Positions 2,296 to 7,259 of a stretch of 13,059 nt of DNA are shown in pieces (the stretch's first letter is position 1; each line of letters starts with the position of its first letter). The notes under the pieces were generated by a model that ran no database searches, was not told the DNA's origin, and saw only the letters and a list, made by a program, of their open reading frames with translations. Source of the stretch: Cyanobacteria bacterium P01_D01_bin.156 (GTDB taxonomy: Bacteria > Cyanobacteriota > Cyanobacteriia > Phormidesmidales > Phormidesmidaceae). The translations under genes and the position numbers were made by a program. The DNA lies in the NCBI GenBank assembly GCA_039024555.1, contig JBCCQQ010000103.1, positions 1 to 13,059 on the forward strand. The letters are read 5' to 3'.

Positions 2296-3336
2296 TTAGA
2301 CCGCAGTCAGCTGCTTCTCCAGGTCGCTGCTATATTCACCTTTGCTAGCTAAACTATTAAACTTAGCCCGCTGCAACAGACGCTGTTTAGCTTCTGCAAT
2401 GTTACCATCCTTCCCTGCCCAATGATCTAAAGCAGGCTGTTGAATTGCCCGAGCATAGGAGAACGTTACCGGCCAGGGGCACTGACTACCAAAATGCTTA
2501 TTCATCGCATTCAGATGGGCAGAGGACTGCTCCTTAGTTTGACCACCCGAGAGAAATGCAATTCCAGCCACGGTCGCAGGCACATTTTTCAGCAGGCAAC
2601 GGATGGTTGCTTCCGCTACAGCGTCTACGCTAACGCTTTCACCAGACGCTTTACCAGGAACTACCATACTAGGCTTTAAGATCATCTGATCATAAGCCAC
2701 ACCCTGGGTGTAAAGCTGTGCAAAAACAGCATCTAGAGTCTCATCAGTCACCTGATAGCAGCGCTCTAAGGAGTGACTGCCATCAATCAGCACCTCTGGC
2801 TCTACAATTGGTACCAAACCGCCTTCCTGACATAGAGCAGCATAGCGCGCCAACCCATGGGCATTGGCTTCAATACAGGCTCGACTGGGAATGCCATCAC
2901 CAATGGTAATAACTGCACGCCATTTGGCGAATCGAGCCCCCATTTTGTAGTACTCCGCAATCCGATCCCTAAGACCGTCTAAACCCTCGGTCACCTTCTC
3001 TCCAGGATGCCCAGCAAAATCTTTAGCTCCAGTATCTACCTTGATGCCAGGAATCATACCTGCATCGGCAATGACTTTCAAAAAAGGCACACCATCACGG
3101 GTGGTTTGACGGATGGTTTCATCGTAGAGAATGGGGCCGCTTACATAGTCAGATAGCCCAGGTGTAGATAAGATCAATTCTCGATAAGTTTGCCGAGAAA
3201 CTTCTGTTGTTGGAATGCCTAAAGCGTCAAATCGCTTATTGCAGGTTCCATTGCTTTCATCCATTGCCAAAATCCCTTTGCCCTCTTGGACCATGGATTT
3301 GGCCGTAGATTGAAGTTCTTTGGTATAGGTGCCCAT
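2296..3336 (-). CDS. fda: Class I (Schiff-base, metal-independent) fructose-1,6-bisphosphate aldolase, 346 aa
   Basis: GKGILAMDES, GIKVD, FAKWR, PIVEPE, Schiff-base Lys in ILKPSMV, FLSGGQ, FSYARA. Start set at ATG 3336 (MGTYTKEL) with AGGAAGG RBS at 3348-3342. Confidence 0.95.
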   Translation of the reverse strand: MGTYTKELQSTAKSMVQEGKGILAMDESNGTCNKRFDALGIPTTEVSRQTYRELILSTPGLSDYVSGPILYDETIRQTTRDGVPFLKVIADAGMIPGIKVDTGAKDFAGHPGEKVTEGLDGLRDRIAEYYKMGARFAKWRAVITIGDGIPSRACIEANAHGLARYAALCQEGGLVPIVEPEVLIDGSHSLERCYQVTDETLDAVFAQLYTQGVAYDQMILKPSMVVPGKASGESVSVDAVAEATIRCLLKNVPATVAGIAFLSGGQTKEQSSAHLNAMNKHFGSQCPWPVTFSYARAIQQPALDHWAGKDGNIAEAKQRLLQRAKFNSLASKGEYSSDLEKQLTAV

Positions 3337-3383
3337 AATCGCCTTCCTAACAAAATTTTGAGTAAAGTGACAGTAACAAGCAG

Positions 3384-3402
3384 ATTGAAAATGATTTTCT
3401 AT
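3384..3402. promoter_or_regulatory. Fur-box-like palindrome ATTGAAAAT-G-ATTTTCTAT upstream of the aldolase gene
   Basis: 9-1-9 inverted repeat, 8/9 symmetric; fits ATTGAnAATnATTnTCAAT. Confidence 0.65.
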
Positions 3403-3424
3403 TAAGCTTGCACGGCCTCGTCTT

Positions 3425-3443
3425 ATTGACATATAATCTCAAT
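3425..3443. promoter_or_regulatory. Fur-box-like palindrome ATTGACATA-T-AATCTCAAT in the aldolase/hypothetical divergent promoter
   Basis: 9-1-9 inverted repeat, 7/9 symmetric, extending to TTATTGA...TCAATAA. Confidence 0.6.
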
Positions 3444-3496: not shown

Positions 3497-3934
3497 ATGA
3501 ATGCAAGCACTCAAGCTGTATCAATTGGTATTATGGCAAAAATTGCCAGTATTCCGGTGTTATTCCGGGCGGAGTTTTCGTCAGCAATTGTAGACTTTAG
3601 TCCCTGGACCATGGATGAACAGACGCAGAAACATTGTGATCCTAACTCGATGGATTTTGCTTTTTCGTTTTCCAAGTTGCATCCCCAATTAAACTGTGGC
3701 TGCGTTTTATTGCAGGTTTGTTTTGTAAACCAGCTTTCAGATAAAAACAATCGCTTCCACGGTATTAAAGCCTCTGGCCATGGTCATCGGGCTCAGTATT
3801 GGAATTTCTCTACCATAACTGACTGGCGATTTGCCGGAGACTCGTTACCATCTGATGTGTGTCAGCAACAGCTCAAACATATCTTTCATCAAATCCATAT
3901 GCTGTTTGGTTATCCTGCTTCACTAACCCATTAA
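3497..3934 (+). CDS. Conserved cyanobacterial hypothetical protein (145 aa)
   Basis: MNAS.QA...KIAS...LF..EF.....D..PW..D..T....DP.S.D..F...W..ST...W...G pattern resembles a cyanobacterial hypothetical family as I recall it; function unknown. Confidence 0.75.
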   Translation: MNASTQAVSIGIMAKIASIPVLFRAEFSSAIVDFSPWTMDEQTQKHCDPNSMDFAFSFSKLHPQLNCGCVLLQVCFVNQLSDKNNRFHGIKASGHGHRAQYWNFSTITDWRFAGDSLPSDVCQQQLKHIFHQIHMLFGYPASLTH

Positions 3935-4063: not shown

Positions 4064-4089
4064 GTCCTCTTCGACTACGCTCAGAGGAC
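4064..4089. repeat. REP-like hairpin GTCCTCT-TCGACTACGCTC-AGAGGAC
   Basis: Perfect 7-bp stem around a TCGACTACGCTC core that resembles a dispersed bacterial short repeat; lies between convergent genes. Confidence 0.55.
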
Positions 4090-4118: not shown

Positions 4119-4262
4119 CTAAAATCGCCAAGATTTATAATGCGCTTCAAATTCTCCGTAGATTAGCATAGCCCAGGAAAATGTGACTGTAATAGGTGAT
4201 AGTACCAACAGCAACCGTAAGTTTATTAAATCAAATGAACCCAAATTAAAGAGATTATGCAT
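4119..4262 (-). CDS. Small PsbY-like membrane protein (47 aa), not in the ORF track
   Basis: Manual translation: MHNLFNLGSFDLINLRLLLVLSPITVTFSWAMLIYGEFEAHYKSWRF*. It shows the PsbY spacing R-x6-P-x6-W-x5-G; AGGA 11 nt upstream; starts 35 nt after the psbF-fusion stop. Confidence 0.65.
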   Translation of the reverse strand: MHNLFNLGSFDLINLRLLLVLSPITVTFSWAMLIYGEFEAHYKSWRF

Positions 4263-4297: not shown

Positions 4298-4591
4298 TTA
4301 ATCCCTCAAGAATCCCTGAATCTCATTTAGAGTTGGCTTACCAAAGTTAATTACATTCCAAATAAGAGAAATCACTAGTGGCAGTAGCACTAGTGATAGT
4401 CGTGAGTCAATTCCAAAAACTTCAAGCTGGATAGGTAATTGAGGTTCACGTCTAATAAATTGCATAGCACCAATGGCTCCCAAAAACCAAACAGTAGGTA
4501 CGCCTAAGGCATGAATTGATAACCATCGAATAGTGTAAATGGGATATTCTATTGGCTGATTGGGGTCTCTGTTGGGAATATTAGCTGTCAT
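4298..4591 (-). CDS. psbF: Cytochrome b559 beta subunit (aa 1-48) fused to a C-terminal PsbY-like domain (aa 61-97)
   Basis: [33 protein letters not shown] is PsbF with the heme His; [35 protein letters not shown] is PsbY-like; AGGAG RBS at 4607-4603. Confidence 0.9.
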
Positions 4592-4615: not shown

Positions 4616-4897
4616 TTATTGATTTAGCGATGGTGCTGTAAAAGGAACTCGGTCTTGGAAGTATTCATTAAGTTGTTGTTTTGCCTGAACACGATTTTCC
4701 ACAATCGGAGCATTGATTTGCCCTGCTCCATAATATTCATCAGGTCGAGGTGTACCAAATGCGTCGTAGGCCAGTCCCGTACTCACAAATAGCCATCCTG
4801 ATATAAACACAGCTGGAAAGTTAATCAGATGTAGCACCCAAAACTGTGGATCGGTAATAATGTCCGATAAAGGACGTTCTCCAGTAGTACCTGCCAT
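4616..4897 (-). CDS. psbE: Cytochrome b559 alpha subunit, divergent paralogue (93 aa)
   Basis: MAGTTGERP...W..H...[23 protein letters not shown]; heme His23 retained; AGGAG RBS at 4910-4906. Confidence 0.95.
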
Positions 4898-5077
4898 ACC
4901 ATCGGCTCCTATTAAAGAGTAGTTATTGATGCTTGATGGCTAAACTCAGAAATAAAATTCTGGCGTTGCTGAGCTTTGAGAGAACATAAGCCGCGAAAAA
5001 AACAGCAACAACTGCGGTAGCCAAACGCATCTCTTGAATTAGTAACGGTATTTTCTCAGTAACATTAGCTTGATTTA

Positions 5078-5096
5078 AATGATATTTATTGTCAAT
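5078..5096. promoter_or_regulatory. Fur-box-like palindrome AATGATATT-T-ATTGTCAAT upstream of psbE
   Basis: 9-1-9 inverted repeat, 6/9 symmetric; contains a minus-strand TTGACA (5095-5090) that could be the -35 element of the psbE operon. Confidence 0.6.
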
Positions 5097-5469
5097 AAGA
5101 TCTCACGTAAAAAAATGTTAACTCTCCAAGATTTGAATATCTTTTGTATGGCTTATCTAGCGATGCTTCTGCTGGAGAGTGTTGCTGATATTACAATGGC
5201 AATACTCATACATGTAACCCGCATGACAATCGTTAAGACTCTGTTTTCTTATCAATATCTATTCTCATTAGTGTGCTACTATAAAGCCCATGCTTTCAAC
5301 GTGACTTGCTCAGTTGGCCTAGGGATGTGGACTGCTTCAGGTTTTCTTGCTATGTGAAGTTTTCGATTTGCAGATGACTTTAACTGTGGCAGGTTTTGGC
5401 ATGCTAAGAGATTCCGTCTCTCTTATGGCGATTGGAATAAGACATGAAACTCTTTCTCCAGGTATTCCT

Positions 5470-6102
5470 ATGAGACTTTTAATACGGATTAGTCTAATCT
5501 TGCTAATGGGCTTTTTATGTCTGTATACAGCCCCTATGGCGCAGGCATCCACAGCAAAAGCGTTTGAAGGATCTATTCATAAGCCACAGCAGAAGAGTTC
5601 TCTCGAAGAAACTCTTGAGCAAGACTGTATCTCTATGACTGGGGCACAGGGGCTAAAAAAATGTAAGGATTTGATTGTACAAGACCAAAACAATTCAGAA
5701 GCCTGGAATCAGCTTGGTCGTATTTTTTATGATTTAGAGAATTATCAGGAAGCCTATTTATCATTCATGCTTGCCACGCAATTTCGGACAGATTATGCGA
5801 TTGCTTGGGCCAATATCTGTGCTGCGCTCAGTCAGCTGCAGTATTATAAAGATGCTTTAGATGCCTGTGATAAATCTCTAAGTGTTAACTTTTCATCAAA
5901 AGGGCCTGTTGATGAAAAGGTTTTGGCCTTGAATAATAAGACAGTAGCTCTTTATTTTTTAGGTCGTTATCAAGAGGCTCTTAAAATTTCTGATCAAGCA
6001 GTTGCGCTTAAGCCAGATGATGCTCAGGCCAACGTAAATCGTACTGTTGCACTCCATGCATTAGCTCATAAAATAGCTCCTCAAAGCGATGATTTCACAT
6101 GA
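5470..6102 (+). CDS. Exported tetratricopeptide-repeat (TPR) protein, about 210 aa
   Basis: TPR patterns (AWNQLGRIFYDLENYQEAY, AWANICAALSQLQYYKDAL, ALNNKTVALYFLGRYQEAL...KPDD); signal peptide MRLLIRISLILLMGFLCLYTAPMAQA from ATG 5470. The start is uncertain because the ORF is open from 5347. Confidence 0.8.
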   Translation: MRLLIRISLILLMGFLCLYTAPMAQASTAKAFEGSIHKPQQKSSLEETLEQDCISMTGAQGLKKCKDLIVQDQNNSEAWNQLGRIFYDLENYQEAYLSFMLATQFRTDYAIAWANICAALSQLQYYKDALDACDKSLSVNFSSKGPVDEKVLALNNKTVALYFLGRYQEALKISDQAVALKPDDAQANVNRTVALHALAHKIAPQSDDFT

Positions 6103-6123
6103 TGAGATTTCACATGATGAGAT
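6091..6123 (+). repeat. 15-bp perfect tandem duplication (GATTTCACATGATGA x2 + GAT)
   Basis: Copies at 6091-6105 and 6106-6120, spanning the TPR gene stop codon. Confidence 0.9.
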
Positions 6124-6218
6124 AGATGTATTGCTTGTGAAAGCATCTTACTACCCCAATATTCTCTACGTCATGATTGTTTGAAAGAATTATTTGTTAA
6201 GTCTACCTGTAGGTATAA

Positions 6219-6836
6219 GTGATGATTATTTTCGCTTTAAAGCGGTTAGCGTTTTTCGCCATGGCCATTTGCCTTAGTTTTCTTCTATGGTATGAACCTG
6301 CATTTGCAATTACCTACTCATTTCAATCACCTGGAACACCGGGGCAAGAGGGTGTTTTGATGGGTTCTGTTACGTATGATTTGGAGATTGCCCGTAAAGC
6401 GTTGGAAAATATGACCTCCAATAGAGGGACATCCGGAGTACTTAACCTCGAAGAACTAGGAGAGGGTAGTGAGTTTTCCTTCGAGTATGTTTCTCCTCAT
6501 TCAGGAGTAAGGCATTCGGAACAAACTATTTGCGATCGCAATATTTATGATCTCAACAATGGTCTGGAAGGTAATGATGTCATTGGTGGAAAAGAAGGTC
6601 CATTCTTCGATTTTAATGGTTATTCTGATTTAGTGTCAGTTGACTTTAAATCCTGTGTGGGTAACAAAAATGAGTTTGGCGTTTCTTCCATCTCAGAGCG
6701 AGACCCTCAAGTTGCCTATAGTGAACTTGAATCTCAGTTCAATCAACTTTTGTTAGTTGAATCTGATTATAGCGGCATTAAACCAGGACGATTTAAGAAA
6801 AAGCTACCTATCAAATTTAACCTAGAAGAGCCATAG
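6219..6836 (+). CDS. Exported hypothetical protein (about 205 aa)
   Basis: Signal peptide ...KRLAFFAMAICLSFLLWYEPAFA|ITYSF, acidic mature part with two Cys; GTG 6219 or ATG 6222 with AGGT upstream. Confidence 0.7.
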   Translation: MMIIFALKRLAFFAMAICLSFLLWYEPAFAITYSFQSPGTPGQEGVLMGSVTYDLEIARKALENMTSNRGTSGVLNLEELGEGSEFSFEYVSPHSGVRHSEQTICDRNIYDLNNGLEGNDVIGGKEGPFFDFNGYSDLVSVDFKSCVGNKNEFGVSSISERDPQVAYSELESQFNQLLLVESDYSGIKPGRFKKKLPIKFNLEEP

Positions 6837-6959: not shown

Positions 6960-7259
6960 CTAAAACAATTCATCCTCCACTGAGGTCTGAATTTTACAAT
7001 CTGACGTGGGATAGGCCACGCAGATCAGAGCATAGCCTTTAGATAACTGGTCATCATCCAGAAACGACTGATCAGATTGATCAACAGTCCCCGATAGAAC
7101 CTTTGCTACACAAACACAGCAAGCACCTGCTCGACAAGAGTACGGCAGGTCCATTCCCGCTTCATTAGCCGCATCTAATATATATTTATCCTTTGGCACT
7201 TCAATGGTCTGCTCAATATTGGAGGGTGGCTCTACCAGCGTGACTTGAAAGGTTCTCAT
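6960..7259 (-). CDS. petF: Plant-type [2Fe-2S] ferredoxin (PetF-like paralogue)
   Basis: [49 protein letters not shown], acidic C-terminus EDELF. Confidence 0.92.

Follow-up and report, generated by a model that had tools for sequence, protein, structure and literature searches.

A PsbF–PsbY fusion protein encoded by a second, divergent cytochrome b559 operon in cyanobacteria

The fusion gene and its operon

Contig JBCCQQ010000103.1 of Cyanobacteria bacterium P01_D01_bin.156 (assembly GCA_039024555.1) was analysed over a stretch of 13,059 nucleotides, referred to here as the window. On its minus strand, an open reading frame (ORF) at 4298..4591 encodes a protein of 97 amino acids (aa) from an ATG start. 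The gene belongs to a second, divergent cytochrome b559 operon, for which it encodes the beta subunit, and its product carries a PsbF-like and a PsbY-like module in a single chain. The translation from which the original prediction had proposed such a fusion is identical, letter for letter, to that of the ORF listing, and the in-frame fusion is borne out by the ORF itself, by matches to both Pfam domains, by conservation among relatives and by purifying selection. Residues 1–48 are PsbF-like and end in MQFIRR, residues 49–60 form a 12-aa linker, and residues 61–97 are PsbY-like.

The PsbF module (4448..4591, minus strand) contains Arg22, the arginine expected at a haem propionate, and the haem ligand His27, whose codon lies at 4511–4513. 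It matches PF00283 (Cytochrom_B559) over residues 10–38 (E 4.7e-15, 55.2 bits; Pfam cut-off 30) and TIGR01333 (cyt_b559_beta) with 77.7 bits, above the NCBIfam cut-off of 61.15. In the linker (4412..4447, minus strand), Pro53 and Gly60 are nearly invariant. The PsbY-like module, which together with the stop codon occupies 4298..4411 on the minus strand, has the anticipated PsbY pattern D62-x-R64-x6-P71-x6-W78-x3-N82-x-G84, and its residues 61–95 match the whole of the PF06298 profile (positions 1–35 of 35; E 2.7e-06, 27.6 bits; cut-off 24). When residues 58–97 were scanned alone against the Pfam PsbY profile, they reached 30.5 bits (E 3.2e-07), so that the likeness to PsbY is more than chance. 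The NCBIfam PsbY equivalog model NF009711 covers residues 61–96 with 22.6 bits, below its cut-off of 48. Because TIGR01333 scores above its cut-off and the PsbY equivalog below, databases name such proteins ‘cytochrome b559 subunit beta’, much as had been expected of a gene that would be annotated simply as psbF. The product is unlike a single-helix PsbF of about 44 aa in having 97 aa and two helices, and unlike a free-standing PsbY of about 40 aa in that its PsbY part is the C-terminal 37 residues of a longer chain.

In the AlphaFold2 model of the fusion protein (pLDDT 68.9), helices span residues 18–43 and 63–83, a short C-terminal helix spans residues 85–96, and the linker is non-helical. 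A fold search with this model against the Protein Data Bank (PDB) gave no match at E ≤0.001, a two-helix hairpin being too simple for such a test. A terminator-like site at 4371–4397 falls within the coding region and is probably a chance occurrence.

Upstream of the fusion gene lies psbE2 (4616..4897, minus strand), which encodes a divergent cytochrome b559 alpha subunit of 93 aa with a C-terminal extension of about 12 aa ending in an AP(S/P)(L/I)-type motif. PsbE2 is a member of the PsbE family by profile (PF00284, 62 bits; TIGR01332, 115.7 bits against a cut-off of 93.95), with changed haem surroundings at Arg18 and Tyr19. A psbE2-type gene stands directly upstream of the fusion gene in 8 of 8 and a further 11 of 11 loci, that is, in all 19 relatives’ loci checked; the count of eight omits L013 and L014, which are near copies of the window. 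A mini-ORF at 4923–5030, upstream of psbE2, is probably non-coding, as its C-terminal half differs between close relatives.

Downstream of the fusion gene is a small second PsbY-like gene (4119..4262, minus strand) of 47 aa with the motif [D/N]-[L/P]-R-[L/W]-L...SPI...W, which consists of the helix only and has no C-terminal tail. Its product matches the Pfam PsbY profile in part (17.4 bits), while 8 of 9 members of the small PsbY-like family match that profile at E ≤1 (best 1.1e-07), and hhalign aligns the family with the linker-plus-PsbY profile of the fusion at 89% (E 2.2e-06). The protein has relatives in three other protein clusters, and small PsbY-like genes of 38–50 aa are found in or beside the operon in the window, L013–L015, L017, L019, L020, L054 and L056–L058. 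About 30 bases beyond the stop codon of the window copy, a 7-bp stem with a 12-nt loop (GTCCTCT...AGAGGAC, 4064–4089) precedes an A/T-rich run. The structure is a candidate terminator of the operon, and is absent from the terminator scan, whose loop limit was 8.

The same genome (6.6 Mb in 149 contigs) has the normal psbE-psbF-psbL-psbJ operon on another contig, with products of 81, 44, 39 and 39 aa, and a free psbY of 41 aa (52 bits). The window therefore holds a second b559 operon and not the only one. The original prediction was right about the fusion, its naming and its topology, and missed the full divergent operon, with psbE2 upstream and the PsbY-like gene downstream.

Conservation of the fusion

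A protein search for the same fusion elsewhere returned 67 proteins, namely 65 other clusters with the same two-module build (94–107 aa, 47–89% identity), the window protein, and a 55-aa call of the latter with an alternative start. Both Pfam domains were precomputed in 27 of the 67. Across 22 aligned fusion members, H27, R22, P71, S75, W78, F83, T87 and E90 are invariant, and D62, R64, G60 and G84-K85-P86 are at least 90% conserved. In a codon comparison of nine loci, the ratio of nonsynonymous to synonymous substitution rates (dN/dS) was 0 to 0.13 in the PsbY module (computable in 6 of 8 pairs), equally low as the 0.05–0.29 of the PsbF module, and 0 to 0.6 in the linker, which is under looser constraint than both modules. 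The PsbY part is under strong purifying selection.

These data bear on whether psbF and a downstream psbY became joined through loss of a stop codon or through faulty assembly. The frame beyond MQFIRR, where a stop codon in close relatives or raw reads had been named as fatal to the fusion, is kept open by the 65 other clusters and the 19 relatives’ loci, in at least five genome families, and dN/dS lies far below 1 over the junction and the PsbY part. Contigs of two studies (X2 records 3 and 4; X5 record 19) agree with the window at the codon following MQFIRR, and contigs of four other runs, from two studies, have no insertions or deletions listed. Bridging the junction requires 31 letters on both sides, and none of the other-run contigs reaches that; the relatives’ open frames are the stronger evidence. 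No support for an artefact or pseudogene was found, the sole damaged copy being L021, and this explanation, already refuted by the conservation data, has practically no chance of being correct.

In L021 (Leptolyngbya; 6001–6249), the fusion gene follows the family only as far as about residue 71 and stops prematurely, and looks like an interrupted copy. It is followed by a 462-aa ORF without a Pfam match that reaches the contig end.

Phylogeny and the haem pocket

A tree was built from concatenated alignments of PsbE and the PsbF module, with 39 rows (9 fusion operons and 30 canonical pairs). It omits L021, which is interrupted, and L013, which is identical to the window, and the columns of the PsbE2 tail were dropped by the fill rule. 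A branch with 100/100 support separates all the fusion operons from the 30 canonical pairs. In the canonical-pair tree, the genome’s own canonical PsbE/PsbF (L001, G000:C30) sits on a long end branch with 0.55 changes per column.

Comparison of 19 fusion-operon rows with 30 canonical rows separated the two groups completely at seven positions of PsbE2 and two of PsbF2. At alpha positions 18 and 19, all 30 canonical rows have Arg and Tyr; all 19 fusion-operon rows have Gln, Ser (five rows), Glu or Leu instead of the Arg, and Phe instead of the Tyr. The other diagnostic changes in PsbE2 are Ile22Leu, Ser24 to an aliphatic residue, Thr26Asn, Leu30 to Val or Ile, and Ala33Ser. In PsbF2, residue 19 changes from Phe to Tyr and residue 35 from Phe to Trp (19/19 versus 30/30). 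His23 and Asp45 of PsbE2 are invariant in 12 of 12 rows, as is R8, and the segments of PsbE that face photosystem II (PSII), namely the N-terminal GERP...T and a stretch of 18 residues, are almost unchanged.

According to a review, the haem propionates of cytochrome b559 are contacted by alpha-Arg8, alpha-Arg18 and beta-Arg19; the R18S-alpha mutant of T. elongatus has altered redox-potential forms of b559 and is also highly light-sensitive, and Y18S-alpha complexes of Synechocystis contain mostly low-potential b559 (PMC4709441). Because alpha-Arg18 is lost and alpha-Tyr19 is replaced by Phe beside the haem propionates, the comparison suggests that the fusion-operon cytochrome is in a different, probably lower, redox-potential form than normal b559.

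Topology and the PsbY contacts

The C-terminus of PsbF ends in the lumen. In solved PSII the N-terminus of PsbY is lumenal and its C-terminus stromal (PMC12789144), in agreement with the predicted topological coherence of the fusion. In the green-algal complex, as described in the same source, the binding partners of PsbY are PsbE and PsbF. On the lumenal side, PsbY touches PsbE through its N-terminal Arg and Trp, the Arg forming a salt bridge with PsbE Asp45; on the stromal side, its C-terminal Gln reaches PsbF. A further contact, made by the PsbY Asn, is with PsbR. Both salt-bridge partners are kept in the fusion operon (R64 in at least 90% of the 22 members, PsbE2 D45 in 12 of 12 rows) and W78 is invariant, and the PsbY-Arg/PsbE2-Asp45 contact probably forms in the products of the fusion operon. 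The influence of PsbY on the redox form of b559, on which the original prediction also drew, is documented in Arabidopsis, where plants without PsbY have only the low-potential form (PMC9214863). PsbY is also described as easily lost from PSII preparations.

The fusion product would accordingly be arranged as a two-helix hairpin, in which the PsbF helix runs from cytoplasm to lumen, a linker of 12–15 residues, presumably lumenal, turns the chain, and the PsbY helix runs back; a linker of this length can easily join two neighbouring helices. PsbE2 and the fusion would hold one haem between alpha His23 and beta His27, and the tether would turn a loosely held PsbY helix into a fixed part of the cytochrome.

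Alternatively, the fusion could be a polyprotein, in which a lumenal peptidase cuts after Gly60 once the hairpin has inserted and yields two products, a PsbF2 extended at its C-terminus and a separate PsbY-like subunit. Joining the two would in that case ensure that they are inserted together and made 1:1, rather than tether them permanently, and the released start, I-D-x-R, matches that of normal PsbY. Of the 22 aligned members, 21 have Gly60 immediately before the PsbY start, and the V-F-G found there in the window protein resembles a signal-peptidase site, which has small or aliphatic residues at −1 and −3. Several members, however, carry Phe at −3 (EFLG), which does not fit that rule; the site is some 15 residues beyond the helix, far for a signal peptidase; and the linker has a conserved residue of its own, P53. 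Some picocyanobacterial psbY frames likewise consist of a hydrophobic stretch followed by VLG-IDAR, and in plants PsbY arises from a polyprotein that is cut into products of about 5 kDa (PMC4823308). Taken together, cleavage appears distinctly unlikely, and the uncut hairpin is the preferred form of the product. In two small picocyanobacterial genomes (L108:278–490 and L109:327–539), the psbY frame is 70 aa from the first ATG and has VLG directly before IDAR, like the fusion junction; this length assumes the first ATG, and a later GTG start is also possible.

Distribution among cyanobacteria

A survey of 401 genomes of the class with a linker-plus-PsbY profile found open frames of the fusion, 99–110 aa in length, in 13 genomes of five families, together with one 59-aa fragment. 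In the phylum-wide sample the PsbF part was matched in 176 of 401 genomes, and the full length only in the window’s genome. Named carriers belong to Okeania, Leptolyngbya, Pelatocladus, Cyanothece, Richelia, Oscillatoria and Acaryochloris, and the fusion was not found in the other genomes of the window’s genus (0 of 2). Canonical psbE/psbF are kept in 10 of the 11 fusion carriers tested and a free psbY in 6 of 6; in G544, no canonical psbE/psbF was found at E ≤0.001 among the 150 of 189 candidates that were scored.

A link to far-red acclimation was considered through the ChlF-like gene and found no clear enrichment. The gene occurs in 32 of the 401 genomes, with 2 of 13 fusion carriers (G551 and G624) against 30 of 388 others; calls extended to E 4.9e-145, clearly separate from ordinary D1 at 1e-134. 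A ChlF-like gene is also present in G401, and one genome of the window’s genus has ChlF without the fusion. Two fusion carriers (L074, that is G551:C83, and G401:C95) contain a cluster of D1-, D2- and ChlF-like genes separate from the fusion operon, in which a solo psbF-like frame of canonical size adjoins the ChlF-like gene. The ChlF-like frames there have Q-D in place of the M-G of D1. In a check for co-occurrence with a divergent third D2 (A. marina psbD3), Acaryochloris G645 gave only three D1-type and two D2-type matches, and the window assembly two reaction-centre matches.

Linked genes and upstream elements

On the plus strand of the window, orf205 (6219..6836) encodes a 205-aa beta-rich protein, secreted or lumenal, with a signal-type N-terminus and two invariant Cys. 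It has no Pfam or NCBIfam match, no informative Atlas match and no fold match (best Z 4.2) for its AlphaFold2 model (pLDDT 76.4). It accompanies the operon in 9 of 13 loci (6 of the first 8 and 3 of 5 more), one of them from Acaryochloris. A TPR-repeat protein gene (5347..6102, plus strand; Pfam TPR families) does so in 7 of 13 (5 of 8 and 2 of 5). Both genes travel with the alternative b559 operon across distant lineages.

This linkage is the starting point for another explanation, namely that PsbE2, the fusion and the small PsbY-like helix form a stand-alone, b559-like complex of four helices and one haem outside mature PSII, which has orf205 and the TPR protein as partners and could act in assembly or repair, in haem handling or as a safety electron sink. 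Besides the frequency of both neighbours, a haem oxygenase gene that adjoins the operon in L017, the ferredoxin gene in the window, the operon’s own extra PsbY-like helix together with the lack of psbL and psbJ, and transcript levels near zero under growth conditions in Acaryochloris marina are in keeping with such a complex. The almost unchanged PSII-facing segments of PsbE2 are, however, hard to explain without PSII contacts, and orf205, lacking a family or fold match, allows no partner function to be assigned. A complex apart from PSII is considered unlikely, and incorporation of the unit into PSII remains the preferred interpretation.

Several further features surround the operon. The haem oxygenase gene in L017 (6379–7092; PF01126, 288 bits) directly follows the fusion gene, and the 2Fe-2S ferredoxin gene of the window lies at 6960–7259. 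A class I fructose-bisphosphate aldolase gene (2296–3432, minus strand) and a 145-aa ORF without a family (3497–3934, plus strand) stand beside the operon in the window, and both recur adjacent to it in L015, L018 and L019.

A perfect inverted repeat of 13 bp, TTATTG-N-CAATAA (TTATTGTCAATAA; 5086..5098, not assigned to a strand), overlaps a TTGACA hexamer some 200 bp upstream of psbE2. The strict repeat is present upstream of psbE2 in the window, L014, L015 and L017, and its core, TTATTGACAA, also in L016, L020, L021 and L022. Strict sites number 3 in the 6.6-Mb genome against 0.6 expected, and the repeat may act as an operator or promoter element. A search of the 300 bases before psbE2 placed the best match to the E. 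coli 19-mer Fur consensus at the conserved palindrome, with 13 of 19 positions, a score equalled by 40 of 200 shuffles. No Rfam family was found in the window.

The Acaryochloris marina member

In A. marina MBIC11017, an exact look-up identified the fusion as AM1_1129 (ABW26168.1, UniProt B0C2V2), a protein of 99 aa that is named ‘cytochrome b559, beta subunit, putative’ by NCBI and ‘Photosystem II reaction center protein Y’ in UniRef. The B0C2V2 sequence is that deposited for chain F of PDB 7YMI, a structure of A. marina PSII–Pcb, and also of 7YMM (PDB search, E 6.8e-28 over residues 8–95). Chain F of 7YMI is labelled ‘Photosystem II protein Y’, and chain E is an 83-aa canonical PsbE. In the supplementary table of the 7YMI paper, PsbF is traced for 30 residues, 17–46, and the paper states that PsbY was not found in the map (PMC10889353).

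A published transcriptome table for A. marina gives 20/20/20 for AM1_1129, 47/21/33 for AM1_1130 (psbE2) and 34,459/11,070/17,313 for canonical psbE. AM1_1129 is the only PsbF listed there, with no canonical psbF; a psbF frame of canonical size lies beside canonical psbE in two other Acaryochloris genomes. We infer that the labelling of chain F goes back to the gene list and is no sign of the fusion protein in the complex, and chain F of 7YMI and 7YMM may be a subunit mis-assignment. Two citing papers attribute to Kiss et al. (2012) the induction of A. marina psbE2 by far-red light (720 nm). No description of a PsbF–PsbY fusion was found in the literature searched, where the discussion of A. 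marina covers psbE2 expression only.

A proposed alternative corner of photosystem II

Use of the fusion in an alternative photosystem II is plausible from the sequences. The haem-bridged unit of PsbE2 and PsbF2-PsbY would replace the normal b559 corner, taking the place of PsbE, PsbF and PsbY beside D2 under some condition, and the proposal as a whole is considered moderately probable.

Several observations weigh against it. The operon is patchy, occurring in 13 of 401 genomes and in 0 of 2 others of the same genus, and is interrupted in L021, and is therefore dispensable. Neither psbL nor psbJ was found downstream in the window operon or in the loci read. In A. marina, AM1_1129 is at the floor of the published transcriptome values and AM1_1130 near it; chain F of 7YMI/7YMM is traced only at 17–46, with no PsbY density reported in the paper, whose listed mass-spectrometry entries show canonical PsbE only, which is not evidence of absence (PMC10889353). 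The redox argument, for its part, draws on mutants of the canonical protein, and the AlphaFold2 confidence for the fusion is moderate only (pLDDT 68.9).

A more elaborate version is possible but doubtful. In it, a dedicated alternative PSII corner would comprise PsbE2, PsbF2 carrying PsbY, the second PsbY-like helix and perhaps orf205 on the PsbE2 tail and the linker. The haem would be locked in a non-normal redox form by the absence of alpha-Arg18, by Phe19 and by a permanent PsbY shield, and the corner would be switched on only in a special light or metal regime. If this were true, nature would already have built the b559 redox-form mutant that has been made by mutagenesis, and the operon would show the purpose of the cytochrome.

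What cytochrome b559 does, and what its high-, intermediate- and low-potential forms signify, are described in reviews as long-standing open questions. PsbY is the one small subunit linked to the high-potential form, yet it is usually lost from preparations. In the fusion operon, evolution appears to have tied PsbY to the cytochrome while changing two residues whose mutation shifts the potential, making the operon a natural experiment on the role of b559. The idea is directly testable because cultured carriers exist (Acaryochloris marina, and the Oscillatoria strain of L020).

There are consequences for annotation as well. The fusion is named plain ‘cytochrome b559 subunit beta’, or ‘PsbY’ in UniProt, and chain F of 7YMI and 7YMM appears to carry the sequence of this paralogue, though canonical psbE is highly expressed and canonical psbF is seemingly missing from the gene list. 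A 2016 review states that cyanobacteria have one psbY gene only, whereas fusion-bearing genomes hold up to three PsbY-type modules.

Comparison with known systems

The closest known counterparts are canonical PsbE/PsbF and free PsbY, which belong to the same families as the products of the window operon (PF00283/PF00284 and TIGR01332/TIGR01333; PF06298). Both haem-ligand His, the beta-Arg and alpha-Arg8 are kept in the fusion operon, and the lumenal segment of PsbE is nearly identical. Canonical b559 lacks PsbF and PsbY in one chain, the C-terminal extension of PsbE2 and the second small PsbY-like gene; the canonical psbEFLJ operon has psbL and psbJ, whereas the fusion operon is without both, and the two kinds of PsbE/PsbF pair fall into separate clades.

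The long-form cytochrome b559 beta of NCBIfam (NF002717/NF002720) is likewise a PsbF-containing protein of about 97 aa. The window protein is not a member, as its 51 and 44 bits fall short of the cut-offs of 153 and 127, and the order of modules is reversed: the PsbF module is at the C-terminal end in the long form (positions 49–92 and 60–95) and N-terminal in the window protein. PsbF2 of Synechococcus sp. PCC 7335 is also a second psbF copy, used in a variant PSII, but it is a duplicate of normal length and not this protein.

In plants, the PsbY polyprotein (PsbY-1/PsbY-2) similarly places PsbY within a longer chain behind preceding hydrophobic helices, with two PsbY-type helices per locus; PDB 8z9d chain 5 was matched in the PDB search. 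The plant precursor differs in holding two PsbY copies and signal peptides, without PsbF, and in being cleaved, while the partner of PsbY in the window is PsbF.

The A. marina pair AM1_1130/AM1_1129 belongs to the same family and has the same operon as the window, with orf205 and the TPR gene linked in a related strain (L103). The A. marina-type copy is nevertheless distinct: that of L103 is 56% identical over 85 residues, and the A. marina member has a longer linker. In the literature, A. marina psbE2 is treated as an extra copy of a PSII gene.

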